Shown here: piece by piece, positions 30,985-40,102 of the stretch | How the letters are laid out: every line of letters begins with the position of its first letter | How positions within the stretch are numbered: position 1 is the first letter of the stretch | The notes under the pieces: generated by a model | What the model was told of the DNA's origin: nothing | The model's input: the letters and a program-made list of their open reading frames with translations, nothing else | The model's database searches: none | NCBI GenBank assembly: GCA_945875865.1 | Contig: CAMCMF010000001.1 | Coordinates: 1,395 to 65,394, forward strand | From: Rhizobium sp. Q54 | GTDB taxonomy: Bacteria; Pseudomonadota; Alphaproteobacteria; Rickettsiales; UBA1997 | Direction: 5' to 3' | Length of the DNA stretch: 64,000 bases | Position numbers and translations under genes: made by a program

Positions 30985-32544
30985 TTATTTTTTAGTTGGT
31001 TGCTGCGTTTGAATAACTTCCTTTGGAATGATTCCAGCTTCTTGTTTGAGGCGATATTCCTTAAGGATTTGCGGATATTTTCTCTCGAAATCACCACCAG
31101 TTAAAATTGCTGTTTCTTCAGCGAGTGTACTGACACCAATTTCAATTCTGGTTTGTGCCGCTCTTACTTCTTTGAGCTGATCAATTTGCCCGCGTGGTGG
31201 TCCAATCCATTCAGCTCCCAAGTAAGCATTTTTTATTGTTGGATTGGCAAAAAAGTTCGGTGCGTTTAATTCGCCTCTTGCTACCGCTTCGGTGATTACC
31301 ATTTCGTAAATTGGCTGACAGAGCTGGATTGATAGCCATTTGCGTCTGCTTGAGAAAAACTTCCACGCTTCAACTAAAGCTGCTTGAGCCGCTGAATAAC
31401 TGGCTGTGAAATGTTTTATTAAAATTTCAAACGGCAATTCCAACGCCACACCAACTTGACGAAGCACGGCTTGCACAAAAGGATCAAAGGCTTGGTTCGG
31501 TCTTTTTGGATCGGCGATTTCAATATTTTCATTGGGCTGCAAATCAAGAATTGCGCCTGGTCCTAGCTTGTAATCTCCATCATCTCTTGCACCACTTTCA
31601 GGAGGAGTCATTGATGCGAGTCCTTCTTCATCTTCTGATTTTACAAAAACAGTAAACATTGCTGACACCACAGCAGCCATAATTTCTGCCTCAGTGTAGC
31701 GATCGAGTTGTTTAAGGCTTTCAATTACTGGTGCTAAATATGGAATGCCTCGTGTAAGTCCTGGTCTGGTTCTGCTGAAAACATGAAAGACCTGACGATT
31801 TCCATATTTATCAAAAGCTGGAACTTTGACAAATTTTTTCTCTTTCTGGTTTTGGTAATCAGTTGGATGTTGATTGCAAATTGAGTAAGAAATCGGTGCG
31901 CCGTCAGAGTCCATTTCAACGCCACCAGCAAGAGTTGCGCAGTCAGCTTTAAAATCAGTATTAGCAACGCGATCAGCTTCAACAATTTGTAGAGCAAGAT
32001 TGATGCTCCTGTTTGGTCGCTGGGCATAACGTTTAAGAATAAAAACATCGCCACTTTCAAGAACTGAGCGCAAAACCAAATTTTGAATTTCGCTAAAAGT
32101 TTGGCAGCGAGTAATGTCGCAATCCTGATTTTCAGCCCAGTTGCGAAATATTCGTTCAGCGTTTCGTTCAAAAATATCAAACTCATCTTCGCTTTTGAAA
32201 TAATCCTTAAGCACGTCGCGATCCAAATGCGACTGAACTTTAAGACCAGTTCCAACAACATTCGTGACTACAGTATTTACCGCACCACAAGCAAGCGGAG
32301 CATTGCGAAGTAAATCGCGTGATCTTTGGCGTAAATCCGGAAGATCGGAAAGCGTAACATTATCGGCAGAGCCATCAGTTGTATTCCAACTTGAAGTTTG
32401 TCTGCGATCGCGTCTTGCACCAGTATAACCACCGGCAATTGCTAATCTGGTTTTGGCTTCAAATCTTTTTAAACCCGCTTGCGGATTGACATAAGAGATA
32501 GCTTTATCCAACCAGTTTTCAGAAATTTTAGGAAATTTTCTCAT
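30985..32544 (-). CDS. portal protein, lambda family
   Basis: 519 aa between gpW-like and the S49 protease. The N-terminus (..GGYTGA.RDRR.TS.W......ADN) is typical of the lambda-family portal. Confidence 0.85.
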   Translation of the reverse strand: MRKFPKISENWLDKAISYVNPQAGLKRFEAKTRLAIAGGYTGARRDRRQTSSWNTTDGSADNVTLSDLPDLRQRSRDLLRNAPLACGAVNTVVTNVVGTGLKVQSHLDRDVLKDYFKSEDEFDIFERNAERIFRNWAENQDCDITRCQTFSEIQNLVLRSVLESGDVFILKRYAQRPNRSINLALQIVEADRVANTDFKADCATLAGGVEMDSDGAPISYSICNQHPTDYQNQKEKKFVKVPAFDKYGNRQVFHVFSRTRPGLTRGIPYLAPVIESLKQLDRYTEAEIMAAVVSAMFTVFVKSEDEEGLASMTPPESGARDDGDYKLGPGAILDLQPNENIEIADPKRPNQAFDPFVQAVLRQVGVALELPFEILIKHFTASYSAAQAALVEAWKFFSSRRKWLSIQLCQPIYEMVITEAVARGELNAPNFFANPTIKNAYLGAEWIGPPRGQIDQLKEVRAAQTRIEIGVSTLAEETAILTGGDFERKYPQILKEYRLKQEAGIIPKEVIQTQQPTKK

Positions 32545-32744
32545 ACTGGAGTAACGCCTCTAACTCTGATTCCGCCGCGATTTTTTCTTTTGATTTGCAC
32601 CAATAATCTTTTTTCGCGTTGCTCAAGTGTAGCAAGATCAGCTTTTCTGACTTTTTGTCCGTTATACCACGCTTCTTGGGCGTTTAACAAAATGTCAGAA
32701 ATTGCCTGTTGGACTTCTGTTAATTGTTCTTCAAGCGTTTTCAA
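32541..32744 (-). CDS. head-tail joining protein (lambda gpW-like)
   Basis: 67 aa between terminase and portal. The helical N-terminus and basic C-terminus (RGGIRVRGVTPV) resemble lambda gpW. Confidence 0.65.
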   Translation of the reverse strand: MKTLEEQLTEVQQAISDILLNAQEAWYNGQKVRKADLATLEQREKRLLVQIKRKNRGGIRVRGVTPV

Positions 32745-37343: not shown

Positions 37344-37525
37344 GAAAGATTCTCTGCCAGCTTTTCAACTTCGGTAAGAAGCATTAATGCGGAATCCTTT
37401 TCACGACAATCTTTTTGAAAAGCATTGGCTTTTCTTTTAGCGATTTCTATCGCACCTTTTCCGTGCTTTTCCAGCAGCTCTTTTGCTCTATTTTTTAGCT
37501 CTTCATTACTCAGATTTTCCGTCAT
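37340..37525 (-). CDS. small helical hypothetical protein
   Basis: From internal Met15 of ORF 37340..37567 (MTENLSNEELKNRAKELLEKHGKG...). Overlaps the methylase stop. Confidence 0.35.
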   Translation of the reverse strand: MTENLSNEELKNRAKELLEKHGKGAIEIAKRKANAFQKDCREKDSALMLLTEVEKLAENLS

Positions 37526-38780
37526 TTTCTCTCTTAAAAATTTCATTAAAACTCTCACCGGTTTCAAAAAGAATCGCGTCTTTACCAGTTAAATTTTGCC
37601 ACCTTTTTACGATTACGTCGACATATTTCTGATCGAGTTCAATCATTCTGCATCTTCGGTTGGTCTGCTCGGAGGCGATAAGCGTTGAGCCGGAGCCGCC
37701 AAAACAATCCAAAATAATATCGTCAGTTTTACTTGAGTTGAGAATGGCGCGCTTGCAAAGCTCAACTGGCTTCATTGTTGGATGGAGGTCGCTTTTTGTT
37801 GGTTTGTTGTAGTACCAAACATCACCTTGATTGCGGTCGCCACACCAATAATGATCATTACTTTGCTTCCATCCGTAGAGGATTGGTTCGTATTGCCGTT
37901 GATAATCTGATCGGCCAAGCGTGAAATGATTCTTTGCCCAGATGATGAAAGTTGACCATTTGCCGCCGGCATCAATGAAAGATTTTTGCAAAGTGTGAAG
38001 CTCCGAGGAACTCATGCAAACATAACATGCACCCTTGGTGACCTCTAAAGCGTTTTTGCAGAAATCAAAAAGGAACTTTCCAAAATTTTCGCCAAGATTG
38101 TCGTTGAGGATTTTTGCGTTATTGCCTCTGGCTTTGTCTTTCATGGTGTTGCCGTAATCCACGTTGTAAGGTGGATCAGTGAAAAGCATGTCGGCAAGCT
38201 CTTCGCCAAGAAGTGTTTGGTAAGTTTCTGTTTTACAGGAATCGCCGCAAATCAATTTGTGCTTTCCAAGCAGCCAAACATCTCCTGATTTTGAGATTGG
38301 TTTTTCTGTGGCTTCAGGAATTTCTTCTGTTTCTTGCTCTTCGTTTTTGTCATAAAGATTGGCAAAAATCTTTTCGAGTTCTTGATCTTCAAAGCCAATC
38401 AAATCGAGGTTAAAATCCTCATTTTTTAAATCCGCCAATTCGCTTGCCAAAATTTCTTCATCCCATCCGGCATTTTCTGCGAGTTTGTTGTCGGCGATGA
38501 TGTAGGCTTTTTTTTGCGTTTCACTTAGGTGATCGAGAACAACAACCGGAACTTCTTTTAAGCCAAGTTTCTTTGCTGCCATCAATCTTCCGTGGCCGGC
38601 AATAATTCCTTTTTCACCATCAATCAAAACTGGGTTGGTAAATCCAAATTCGATTATGCTGGCAGCAATTTGCGCAACTTGCGCTTCCGAGTGCAGCCGT
38701 GCATTTTTGCTGTAAGGAATCAATTCATCGACTTTTTTAAGCTCGATGTGATCCGCCATTTTTGGTGCAAAATCATCCAT
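37506..38780 (-). CDS. ParB-like nuclease domain fused to beta-class N6A/N4C DNA methyltransferase
   Basis: Start set at ATG 38780, just after the stops of both upstream frames. ParBc signature: LIPYSKNARLH...IIAGHGRLMAAKKLG. MTase motif IV is TDPPYNVDY and motif I is ILDCFGGSGST (IV before I). Confidence 0.85.
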   Translation of the reverse strand: MDDFAPKMADHIELKKVDELIPYSKNARLHSEAQVAQIAASIIEFGFTNPVLIDGEKGIIAGHGRLMAAKKLGLKEVPVVVLDHLSETQKKAYIIADNKLAENAGWDEEILASELADLKNEDFNLDLIGFEDQELEKIFANLYDKNEEQETEEIPEATEKPISKSGDVWLLGKHKLICGDSCKTETYQTLLGEELADMLFTDPPYNVDYGNTMKDKARGNNAKILNDNLGENFGKFLFDFCKNALEVTKGACYVCMSSSELHTLQKSFIDAGGKWSTFIIWAKNHFTLGRSDYQRQYEPILYGWKQSNDHYWCGDRNQGDVWYYNKPTKSDLHPTMKPVELCKRAILNSSKTDDIILDCFGGSGSTLIASEQTNRRCRMIELDQKYVDVIVKRWQNLTGKDAILFETGESFNEIFKRENDGKSE

Positions 38781-38781
38781 A

Positions 38782-40005
38782 TCAGTTAATTGTTTTTTGT
38801 AAGACACATTCCATTCGTAAGAGTTCGCCACGCATACGCTGCAACCAGTGGAACCACTCCGTTTCCGCAAGCTCGAATTCTGTCCACGCGATCGGCCATC
38901 CCATCAGCCATTCGGTGAAGCGCGGGTTTAAGGTGATTTGGGACTCTGTTCCATCCTTCATGATCTGAGGGGCTTGGCGGCCAAGCAGGGAGTTCACCGG
39001 AACATTGGCATTGGCGGTGTCTTTCCAATCTCTCGTTGTTGGGGTTGCCCAGTTCGCTATCATCACTTCCAGCCTTTGCTTCGGATTTCCCGCTTCCACT
39101 TCTTTGCTGCTCGCACCATTTGCAGAAGAAGTTCTGACAGTTGGCCAGGTCTGTTTTGTTTGGTAAGGCAAACCCTGATTCATGTTTTGCAGGTCTTCCT
39201 TGCTCTTCGGAAAATTCACAGGTTGCAAAATCGTTTCCGCCAGCGATGGATTCCTTAACGTGTTGCGACCATCTTTCCTGATCATCTTTTCCGGCGGTCT
39301 TGCTTTCATTACTGAAGCATCGGTCACTGTTATTGTCGGCCATGCTTCCTGAGCAACAATTCTCAGCGGTTTGTGCAAATTGATTCCTTCCATTTTCTTC
39401 TCTTGCGCTCTTTCTTTCCAGCGCTGTGGCGTTTCTGTCTCGTTGCAAAGATGATCCGAAACTATCACTGTAGGCCAGGATAAAAAGTCTTTCTCTTTGG
39501 TGAGGAGCACCAACTTCCTGCGCTGTAAACAAGCCTGCCTTAATTTTGTAACCCAGTTGTCGTAGGTCATTTGCGACTTCTTCAAATCCAACTCGTAAAT
39601 GGTTGGAGACATTTTCAAAGAAGCAGATTGGTGGCTGGATTTCTTTGATGAGTCTTTTGATGTCGGGCCAGAGATGTCTTGGGTCTTTATCTCCAAGTTT
39701 TTTTCCAGCAACACTAAACGGCTGGCAGGGATATCCGCCAGTGATACAATCCACTTTTCCACGCCAAGGTCTGCCATCGAAGGTTTTAAGATTCGTCCAA
39801 ATAGGCGCTGCATCCAATCTTTTTTCTTCCATGCGGCGAGCCAAGATTTCGCACGCAAAGGCTTCGATCTCGACATAACAAACTGTTCGAGAAGTTGGCT
39901 CTGCGAGTTTAAATCCAAGCTCGATTCCGCCAACTCCTGAGCAGAGGGATAAAATTCTGAAGGGATGTAAATCCACACGTAATCTTTCGTAAAAATTTCA
40001 CGCAA
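38782..40005 (-). CDS. alternative-frame ORF co-extensive with dcm (frame B): W-P-T repeat protein with LNPRFTEWLMGWP..W motif
   Basis: 407-codon ORF offset 1 nt from dcm. Four spaced modules (SWPTVIVSD, AWPTITVTD, TWPTVRTSS, NWATPTTRDWKD), then NVPVNSLLGRQ and LNPRFTEWLMGWPIAWTE. The first ATG is at codon 44, and the nominal TTG start lies in a terminator U-tract. Coding status is unproven. Confidence 0.4.
   Translation of the reverse strand: MREIFTKDYVWIYIPSEFYPSAQELAESSLDLNSQSQLLEQFVMSRSKPLRAKSWLAAWKKKDWMQRLFGRILKPSMADLGVEKWIVSLADIPASRLVLLEKNLEIKTQDISGPTSKDSSKKSSHQSASLKMSPTIYELDLKKSQMTYDNWVTKLRQACLQRRKLVLLTKEKDFLSWPTVIVSDHLCNETETPQRWKERAQEKKMEGINLHKPLRIVAQEAWPTITVTDASVMKARPPEKMIRKDGRNTLRNPSLAETILQPVNFPKSKEDLQNMNQGLPYQTKQTWPTVRTSSANGASSKEVEAGNPKQRLEVMIANWATPTTRDWKDTANANVPVNSLLGRQAPQIMKDGTESQITLNPRFTEWLMGWPIAWTEFELAETEWFHWLQRMRGELLRMECVLQKTIN
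38786..39976 (-). CDS. dcm: DNA (cytosine-5)-methyltransferase (frame A of dual-frame locus)
   Basis: Motifs: I LCSGVGG, IV GGYPCQPFS, VI FFENV, VIII QRERLFILA, C-terminal DRVDRIRACGNGVVPLVAAYAW. GTG start. The middle ~160 aa is low-complexity. Confidence 0.85.
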   Translation of the reverse strand: MDLHPFRILSLCSGVGGIELGFKLAEPTSRTVCYVEIEAFACEILARRMEEKRLDAAPIWTNLKTFDGRPWRGKVDCITGGYPCQPFSVAGKKLGDKDPRHLWPDIKRLIKEIQPPICFFENVSNHLRVGFEEVANDLRQLGYKIKAGLFTAQEVGAPHQRERLFILAYSDSFGSSLQRDRNATALERKSAREENGRNQFAQTAENCCSGSMADNNSDRCFSNESKTAGKDDQERWSQHVKESIAGGNDFATCEFSEEQGRPAKHESGFALPNKTDLANCQNFFCKWCEQQRSGSGKSEAKAGSDDSELGNPNNERLERHRQCQCSGELPAWPPSPSDHEGWNRVPNHLKPALHRMADGMADRVDRIRACGNGVVPLVAAYAWRTLTNGMCLTKNN

Positions 40006-40041
40006 AAAAAATGCGCACCTAAATTGCTTCAGGTGCGCACC
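40004..40041 (-). terminator. intrinsic terminator-like hairpin directly upstream of the methylase locus
   Basis: Minus strand reads AGGTGCGCA-(10-nt loop)-TGCGCACCT followed by T8. Stem arms at 40012..40020 and 40031..40039. Confidence 0.55.
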
Positions 40042-40073
40042 TTGCGAATGCTGTTATTTATTGGTTCTAACTT

Positions 40074-40102
40074 AAAAATGCGCACCAAGTGCGCACCCTT
40101 TT
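40074..40102. terminator. bidirectional terminator-like hairpin sharing the TGCGCAC stem
   Basis: TGCGCAC-CAA-GTGCGCA (40079..40095), flanked by A5 on one side and CCCTTTT on the other. Confidence 0.5.

Follow-up and report, generated by a model that had tools for sequence, protein, structure and literature searches.

Two conserved, co-extensive reading frames of a phage-like cytosine methylase gene probably encode the two chains of one enzyme

Multispecific cytosine-C5 DNA methyltransferases (C5-MTases) of Bacillus phages, such as those of SPR, phi3T and rho11s, are single chains read in one frame, with tandem target-recognising modules between the conserved motifs VIII and IX. Other enzymes of this kind consist of two polypeptides. 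In M.AquI, a natural α/β C5-MTase, the split lies in the variable region, the α chain holding motifs I–VIII and the β chain the rest of the target-recognition domain (TRD) together with motifs IX–X (PMC3404938). Split C5-MTases have also been engineered by fragment complementation from M.HhaI, M.BspRI, M.BsuRI and M.SssI (PMC3404938). M.EcoHK31I from E. coli HK31 (Lee, Kam & Shaw 1995), as it is described in PMC2836561 and PMC3404938, is a two-polypeptide C5-MTase whose β chain is encoded in another frame of the α gene; α carries motifs I–VIII and X, β carries motif IX, both chains are required, and removing the β start codons by changes that are silent in α abolishes activity. Furthermore, initiation in both frames at GUGUG or AUGUG has been shown in E. 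coli (Kohl et al. 2022, PMC9841429). Here, we analysed a C5-MTase gene on the minus strand of a 64,000-nucleotide stretch of DNA (hereafter the window; positions 1,395 to 65,394 of contig CAMCMF010000001.1, assembly GCA_945875865.1, Rhizobium sp. Q54), in which two co-extensive open reading frames (ORFs), A and B, are both conserved. The locus probably represents a heterodimeric C5-MTase, with an α chain from frame A and a β chain from frame B.

An earlier reading of the letters alone (the sequence-only reading) had described two minus-strand ORFs at this locus, and the ORF list contains both with the coordinates given there: ORF A at 38786..39976 (396 amino acids (aa), GTG start) and ORF B at 38782..40005 (407 codons from its first TTG, ~398 from the GTG at 39978). 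Frame B is +1 relative to frame A and both are stop-free, while an ORF scan finds ~35 stops in the third sense frame across the same stretch. The guanine-plus-cytosine content (GC) of the window is 39.8%, and the stop-to-stop overlap of A and B, 403 codons, is a clear outlier among its same-strand overlaps, the second longest of which (30988-32559 with 31737-32267, minus strand) spans 177 codons. Frame A matches PF00145 in Pfam (aa 6-251, E 2e-38) and TIGR00675 (110 bits against a cut-off of 100.65), and its PHROG alignments to phrog_363 and phrog_116 extend to aa 387-391. LCSGVGG, GYPCQPFS, ENV and QRERLF, which are C5-MTase motifs I, IV, VI and VIII, lie on this one chain, and motif X, GNGVVP at A371-376, follows C-terminally on the same chain. 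All the motifs that had been quoted from the letters are present, the motif X string DRVDRIRACGNGVVP occupying aa 362-376 and not 361-375. As a monomeric enzyme, frame A would be incomplete: it has no selected TRD and motif IX between motifs VIII and X. Frame B contains a conserved N-terminal peptide and further conserved blocks, four W-x-T modules and an LNP..GWT motif. A profile scan of frame B, proposed in the sequence-only reading, matched the phage DNA-methyltransferase family phrog_1008 (E 4.5e-18), as well as phrog_27243 and phrog_26627, and gave no match to Pfam and NCBIfam models.

Variability compared by codon position in a codon alignment of 12 sequences reveals which frame is selected along the gene. 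Over A codons 9-175 the third position of A is the most variable, and frame A is the selected one. Over A codons 181-364 the most variable position is the first of A, which is the third of B, and the least variable is the third of A, the second of B; here it is frame B that is selected. Over A codons 365-394 the third position of A is again the most variable, and selection is on frame A once more. The selected information is an A-B-A mosaic with switch points near 39480 and 38880. The frame-A-dominant segment (39467..39952, minus strand; A codons 9-170) holds motifs I, IV, VI and VIII with their invariant residues, and its variability is highest at the third and lowest at the second position of A. 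The frame-B-selected segment (38878..39480, minus strand; B codons 176-376), with variability highest at the third and lowest at the second position of B, holds the four W-x-T modules, presumed to be the target-recognition region, and the motif IX-like element. Over the same DNA lies a stop-free stretch of frame A (38894..39466, minus strand; A codons 171-361) that shows no amino-acid-level selection and is predicted to be disordered. Since the four-fold degenerate sites of B in this middle segment are conserved no more than those of neighbouring genes, we regard the frame A portion as a stop-free spacer.

The situation differs in the N-terminal domain, part of which appears to be selected in both frames at once. 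In the window's clade, identity at the four-fold sites of frame A in this domain is 0.86-0.94 between close pairs and 0.57-0.69 between distant pairs; two neighbouring genes, compared in the same pairs of genomes, reach 0.52-0.82 and 0.29-0.43, respectively. Two blocks of frame B are selected. The first, B64-77 (W..LFGRILKPS; 39775..39816, minus strand), overlaps the catalytic domain of A, and across 26 lineages the four-fold sites of A over it are nearly fixed (P58 CCT in 24/25, T61 ACG, L63 CTT, T65 ACC, and G68 GGC in 17/17). The second, B136-165 (IY..L.KS.MT...WV..LR..CL.R.K; 39511..39600, minus strand), has T147, L155 and R162 as invariant B residues and overlaps the motif VI–VIII region of A, where V134 GTC (21/24), G142 GGT (23/26) and A152 GCG (25/26) are likewise nearly fixed. 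T79 ACT (19/20) is a further near-fixed site of A, one not mapped to a B residue; the others all correspond to second positions of conserved B residues in the two blocks. Because stop avoidance alone cannot fix such sites, they argue for selection on frame B in these blocks. We had also considered the N-terminal part of frame B as a mere untranslated-like spacer, which the four-fold-site constraint contradicts for the window's clade.

Both frames are widely represented in databases. Frame A has thousands of homologs and frame B 311, many of the latter with 96-98% coverage, at 35-96% identity and nearly all unannotated; since frame B homologs are deposited alongside frame A homologs, gene callers evidently choose either frame in relatives. 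A frame-B profile searched against 1.84 billion representatives (clusters at 50% identity) retrieved 33,133 cluster representatives, 15,291 of them at E<=1e-10, and most B-type database proteins align from their own residue 1 to profile position 1-2. At the nucleotide level, the locus had no megablast match among phages or E. coli genomes. Viral contigs and alphaproteobacterial metagenome-assembled genomes (MAGs) supplied the DNA of 32 related loci, to which 80 more were then added. In the first set, both frames are open across nearly the whole gene (284-513 codons) in ~26 of 30 loci, even at 35-45% amino-acid identity, and the third frame always contains 10-32 stops. In the second set, both frames are open in most loci, and ~73 of the 80 combine motif X in frame A with LNP..LMG, the motif IX-like element, in frame B. 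Many of the second-set loci are GC-rich, which makes long open frames less surprising, but those of 45-55% GC show the same pattern. The sequence-only reading had proposed looking for both frames in homologous loci, and open they are, in ~100 of them, down to the identities just given.

Chance was assessed by synonymous-codon and codon-permutation shuffles. In the window, frame B has no stops across the N-terminal domain of A, where 3-5 are expected (P 0.0025-0.004), and frame A has none across the middle segment of B, where 7-10 are expected (P<0.0005). The same holds elsewhere: over the N-terminal domain, frame B of eight lineages has 0 stops against 3-5 expected (P ~0.002-0.01 per locus), and over the middle, frame A of the loci tested has 0 against 6-20 (P<5e-4). 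By these shuffles, the openness of either frame is not a by-product of the protein sequence of the selected one. Two internal controls are available. One is a group of relatives (L015-17, L088, L090, L110 and L111) in which motif X is on B: their frame A closes no more than 7 codons after motif VIII and then shows the expected stop density (14 stops past motif VIII against 11.7 expected in the L016-type loci), and their frame B is still open across the whole catalytic domain. The other, L030 (Aestuariivita MAG, JAPORV010000067.1), is a decayed copy, with PCQ mutated to LCQ, a stop in the motif VIII region and several frame breaks, and both of its frames hold many stops. Each frame is open just as far as its last functional element.

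The two frames also begin together. At the twin start GTGTG (39974..39978, minus strand) the frame-B GTG (39978..39976) and the frame-A GTG (39976..39974) share a nucleotide, and 4 nt upstream a purine tract, GAAAGA (39983..39988, minus strand), might function as a weak Shine-Dalgarno-like site; relatives have GGAGGA, GAGGA or AAGGA at this position. The gene starts with GTGTGGAT in the window's clade and with TTGTGGAT, ATGTGGAT, ATGTGGGT or GTGTGGCT in other lineages, all of which have a frame-B start codon, a frame-A GTG 2 nt later and one purine tract ahead. NTG-TG-G is kept in at least six lineages as ATG, GTG or TTG, the GC-rich clade starts with ATGcATGa or xTGAATG, and the two start codons are separated by no more than 5 nt in 83 of the 87 distinct loci. 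In five loci a B-frame stop immediately precedes the start of B, and for this reason the twin-start codon fits being the B start. Moreover, the N-terminus of B is conserved across clades, as M-x-W-L-Y-[LI]-P-P or VWIYIPSEF.

How frame B relates to the methylase is best seen in the relatives L016 and L017, in which a single frame holds, in this order, the W-P-T modules, LNPDWVEKLMGVPTGWT, a stretch of 30 residues and motif X (RVDRIRMLGNGVVP), and frame A stops 7 codons past motif VIII. As one chain of these L016-type relatives carries the TRD and LNP..GWT together with motif X, the frame-B segment belongs to the methylase. In the window, the motif IX-like element LNPRFTEWLMGWPIAWT (38881..38931, minus strand; B359-375) includes the invariant residues L359, N360, P361, F363, M368, G369, W370 and W374, and motif X, RVDRIRACGNGVVP, lies at 38849..38890 on the minus strand (A363-376). 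In one sub-lineage, whose members share the identical C-terminus GNGVVPATAAKAWTVLS, some proteins have motif X on the A chain (P0357, P0352) and others on the B chain (P0242, P0248), a move that an enzyme already built from two chains would readily allow. The hhalign comparison of the L016-type family with M.HhaI gave one local match, of LNPDWVEKLMGVPTGWT on KLHPRECARVMGYPDSY (motif IX), at E 0.05. This match, weak as it is, and the position relative to motif X in L016 are suggestive of LNP..GWT being the equivalent of motif IX. Pfam searches with A-B-A mosaics of the window and of L016 gave a PF00145 match that ends by motif VIII; the chimera scan put forward in the sequence-only reading did return the family, without extending it past that motif, and is uninformative at Pfam sensitivity. 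When the L016 mosaic and the profiles of the B family and of the L016 type were searched against PDB sequences, the N-terminal domain alone or nothing was returned, and no conventional single-chain enzyme with a frame-B TRD was among the top matches. Modules of the form W-x-T-[PV]-x-x-x-[DE] number from 1 to 6 per relative (e.g. L002, L111, L009) at spacings of ~23-65 residues, and their number accounts for much of the length variation among frame B relatives.

Structure prediction with AlphaFold2 gave a folded frame A over residues 1-170 (predicted local distance difference test (pLDDT) 64-92), a featureless stretch without secondary structure at 192-332 (pLDDT 24-35) and a motif X helix at 374-387 (pLDDT 73-87). 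In the proposed heterodimer, the same 1.2 kb of one mRNA would be read in two frames to give both chains. Having bound at the single weak Shine-Dalgarno-like site, ribosomes would initiate at the frame-B GTG (39978) or at the frame-A GTG (39976), which follows 2 nt later. The α chain would comprise the catalytic large domain with motifs I–VIII, a probably disordered spacer of ~190 residues and the motif X helix, which would pack back on the large domain. The β chain would comprise the N-terminal peptide and at least two selected blocks over the catalytic-domain DNA, followed by the W-x-T modules and LNP..GWT as the small domain. Association of α and β would yield an active enzyme methylating phage DNA, presumably for protection against host restriction. 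Translation of both frames, association of the chains, target recognition by β and the anti-restriction role are what we infer from the sequences.

Several points weigh against the heterodimer. The argument for translation of both frames comes from conservation of the sequence. The LNP..GWT motif found no significant profile support as motif IX in Pfam and PDB-sequence searches. Frame B modelled alone has a mean pLDDT of 46, with helices at 136-172 (pLDDT 63-71), 190-210 and 378-406, and its predicted fold is of low confidence, too poor for the matches of a fold search to mean anything. In the enterobacterial branch (Klebsiella phages and E. coli P2-like prophages) the first ATG of B lies ~25 codons inside A and there is no twin start. 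Suppression of synonymous variation, a check named in the sequence-only reading, is strong over the N-terminal domain in the window's clade; the bulk constraint is weak in the GC-rich clade, only three sites of which are held against the bias in third-position GC; with moderate confidence, we consider the constraint exerted by frame B on this domain to be patchy and strong in the window's clade. The agreement with M.EcoHK31I in how the motifs are split, X in frame A and an IX-like element in frame B, is one of description and not of compared sequences. Finally, the β chain of M.EcoHK31I starts internally, and a co-extensive overlap is not obviously needed for an enzyme of this type.

This last point leads to the alternative that survives best, which we nevertheless hold to be unlikely: a strict M.EcoHK31I-type two-chain enzyme whose β would be made from an internal start only (e.g. 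B Met132 or Met146), the upstream part of frame B being untranslated or incidental. Internal ATG codons are indeed present in frame B, the β chain of M.EcoHK31I tolerates loss of its first residues, and both the separate B start of the enterobacterial branch and the weak bulk constraint in the GC-rich clade would suit such an enzyme. It does not account, however, for a frame B that is stop-free over the whole catalytic domain in essentially all lineages where 3-5 stops are expected, nor for a conserved start codon followed by a conserved M-x-W-L-Y-L-P-P peptide right at the 5′ end. The fixed four-fold sites of A that preserve B residues 64-77 and the B-frame stop directly before the twin-start codon in five loci speak in the same direction.

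The next alternative, an even less likely one, takes frame A as a complete orphan methylase with a degenerate low-complexity region and frame B as an independent overprinted protein, for example one for DNA binding or anti-defence. In its favour, frame A alone passes the Pfam and NCBIfam thresholds and is what pipelines annotate, and frame B has no Pfam or PDB relatives. Yet the variable region of A is without amino-acid selection and predicted to be disordered, which leaves A with no selected TRD and motif IX, and in L016-type relatives motif X, which is integral to the catalytic fold, is on B and A ends after motif VIII, so that B is not unrelated to the enzyme. The sequence-only reading had offered genuine dual coding, with a second protein overprinted on the methylase gene, as its first model. 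The dual coding itself stands, in that conservation of the shared twin start makes both frames appear to be translated; the separate identity of the second protein does not, since the motif layout, as in M.EcoHK31I, makes B look like the missing half of the same enzyme.

A single-chain methylase made by two programmed frameshifts, +1 near 39470-39480 and -1 near 38880, would have the composition A(1-~168)-B(~177-375)-A(~366-396). The selected mosaic is exactly A-B-A, the product would have the canonical order of motifs I–VIII, TRD, IX and X, and the L016-type relatives do have TRD, IX and X in one frame. The junctions themselves argue against it. No conserved slippery heptamer was found at either junction in nucleotide alignments of 19-22 loci, and third positions there vary freely (e.g. 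CTT TTT, TTA TTC, CTC TTC, GTC TAT). At junction 1 (39469..39487, minus strand) the motif VIII strand of A, LFILAY (39470-39487), and the first module of B, SWPT (39469-39480), are written on the same nucleotides; more generally, R-x-R-[LV]-[FY]-I-[LM]-[AG] in A and the first W-[PRA]-T in B share nucleotides, and xTG-GCC/TGG-CC is kept in 21 of 22 loci while the neighbouring third positions vary. At junction 2, G-W-T in B and R-V-D-R in A share G TGG AC, the RVDR of motif X sharing its nucleotides with the GWTE of B in the window, and in several lineages B ends inside motif X, right after GWT. With motifs overlapping at both junctions, one chain cannot hold both members of either pair. Furthermore, in a frameshift gene the alternative frame should be open only past the shift site, whereas here B is open from the 5′ end and A through the middle. 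Frameshifting leaves unexplained why, in all lineages, the 166-183 codons of B that precede junction 1 are open, why A is open for 88-309 codons between the junctions, and why a B-frame start codon and N-terminal peptide are conserved; in addition, a review of frameshifting names no DNA methyltransferase case. The second model of the sequence-only reading, one methylase decoded through two frame changes, was right about the A-B-A geometry and the switch points near 39480 and 38880, as variability by codon position confirms, and is not upheld in the frame changes, for want of a conserved slippery site and given the overlapping motifs. We consider a frameshifted enzyme improbable.

With both frames open, single indels or assembly errors give rise to full-length hybrid ORFs that are deposited as proteins. 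One database protein, P0188, switches from A to B exactly at an A7 run (~39697-39703 in the window; GGAAAAAAACTT, frame A SVAGKKLG), and another, P0193, switches frame just before motif VIII. We considered and rejected such hybrids as meaningful fusions, since the switch points differ, one lies before motif VIII and there is no return to A; they are incidental indel products. A compositional accident, the third model of the sequence-only reading, or else a pseudogene or an artefact of sequencing in which indels compensate each other, for which these hybrids and the long open stretches in all frames of high-GC relatives might be adduced, is hardly credible, as the overlap is a clear outlier in a window of 39.8% GC, the same state recurs in ~100 independent assemblies from different sources, the shuffles reject chance and the true pseudogene relative L030 looks quite different.

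Directly downstream of the gene lies another methylase (37506..38780, minus strand), a ParB-like domain fused to an N6/N4 DNA methyltransferase, whose ATG at 38780 comes 1 nt after the stop of B. The two methylases stand in tandem in a phage-like region, and the gene studied here appears to be a phage orphan methylase, presumably directed against restriction. The Klebsiella phage KpV2811 also has a ParB-like gene beside its methylase. Directly upstream of the gene, at 40008..40096 on the minus strand, there are two terminator-like hairpins with T runs, built from copies of GGTGCGCA; all five copies of this sequence in the 64-kb window fall within the 90 nt upstream of the gene (40008-40097). 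In the relatives L004 and L028 this place is taken by direct repeats of a variant octamer, GTGCGTAC and GTGCGGAC, respectively. The repeats and hairpins might serve to terminate the upstream gene, as operators or as sites that the methylase itself targets. Opposite the gene there are three antisense ORFs of 91-113 codons (38938-39258, 39599-39940 and 39603-39878, plus strand), which the sequence-only reading had already listed and which are probably a side effect of stop depletion in the two sense frames.

Of 5,426 complete E. coli genomes, 52 contain relatives, and cultured Klebsiella phages have them as well. In E. coli P2-like prophages (L116, E. coli E21, NZ_CM143892.1 1312235-1313137) and the Klebsiella phages YMC16/01/N133 and KpV2811 (L033 and L034), a single gene is annotated, as 'DNA cytosine methyltransferase' or 'C-specific methylase'. 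The +1 frame of these prophages and phages is open for ~255-330 codons and encodes WPTP modules and L.P.HSRWLMGFP. In phiKX1, it is the frame-B ORF that is annotated, as a hypothetical protein.

These relatives raise the question of how far the heterodimer extends. The chances seem to us evenly balanced that phage and prophage cytosine methylases with more than 15,000 frame-B clusters, including those of the E. coli P2-like prophages and Klebsiella phages, are obligate two-chain enzymes read from one mRNA in two frames over the whole gene, beginning at twin starts, with motif X free to move between the chains by indels. If this is true, the family would represent the longest and most widely conserved same-strand dual coding known in prokaryotic viruses, and M.EcoHK31I would turn from a single curiosity of 1995 into the rule for a major family of phage methylases. 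If both frames are translated, ~1.2 kb would encode two full-length cooperating proteins, in part selected in both frames at once, and ambiguous initiation at GUGUG/AUGUG would acquire a physiological role. Thousands of 'hypothetical proteins' would be β subunits that have gone unrecognised, and what is annotated as 'DNA cytosine methyltransferases' would be only part of an enzyme, so that tens of thousands of genes, in which α is called complete and β is called hypothetical or not called, would need corrected annotation. Prediction of specificity, whether for restriction evasion or for the interpretation of methylomes, would need to be based on frame B in place of the annotated protein. With relatives present in E. 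coli prophages, the idea is open to a direct test.

Compared with known systems, the locus combines features that are otherwise found apart. The W-x-T-P modules, 1-6 per relative, are reminiscent of the tandem target-recognising modules of the multispecific Bacillus phage C5-MTases, a resemblance in description. M.AquI has the same motif distribution as the relatives L015-17, L088, L090, L110 and L111; in the window, by contrast, motif X is on the α chain with motifs I–VIII, which is not the AquI-type layout. Moreover, the β of the L016-type relatives overlaps the whole α ORF, whereas the M.AquI genes presumably overlap only briefly. The engineered split C5-MTases make chains with extra spacer sequence plausible (PMC3404938), but these artificial enzymes are encoded by separate genes, and their activity is low (~4% for M.SssI). 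Ambiguous initiation (PMC9841429) resembles the twin start in that a single Shine-Dalgarno site, followed by two start codons spaced 2 nt apart, can supply ribosomes to two frames; the second products of the E. coli cases are, however, short or incidental, and none is a conserved 400-codon partner subunit. No description of such a two-frame arrangement was found in the literature searched. With M.EcoHK31I the locus shares a second chain in an alternative frame of the gene for the first, here conserved in ~100 loci. The β of M.EcoHK31I, of 176 aa, has an internal start and lies wholly inside the gene for a 309-aa α, whereas the ORFs of the window are co-extensive (396 and ~398-407 codons) with overlapping starts. 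Its TRD is assigned to α, whereas the selected recognition-like region of the window is in frame B and the variable region of α is a spacer. It belongs to a restriction-modification system, whereas the window gene is an orphan phage methylase beside a second methylase. Relative to M.EcoHK31I as described in the papers, what is new here is the co-extensive overlap, the twinned starts, the placement of the recognition region on β and the very large size of the family.

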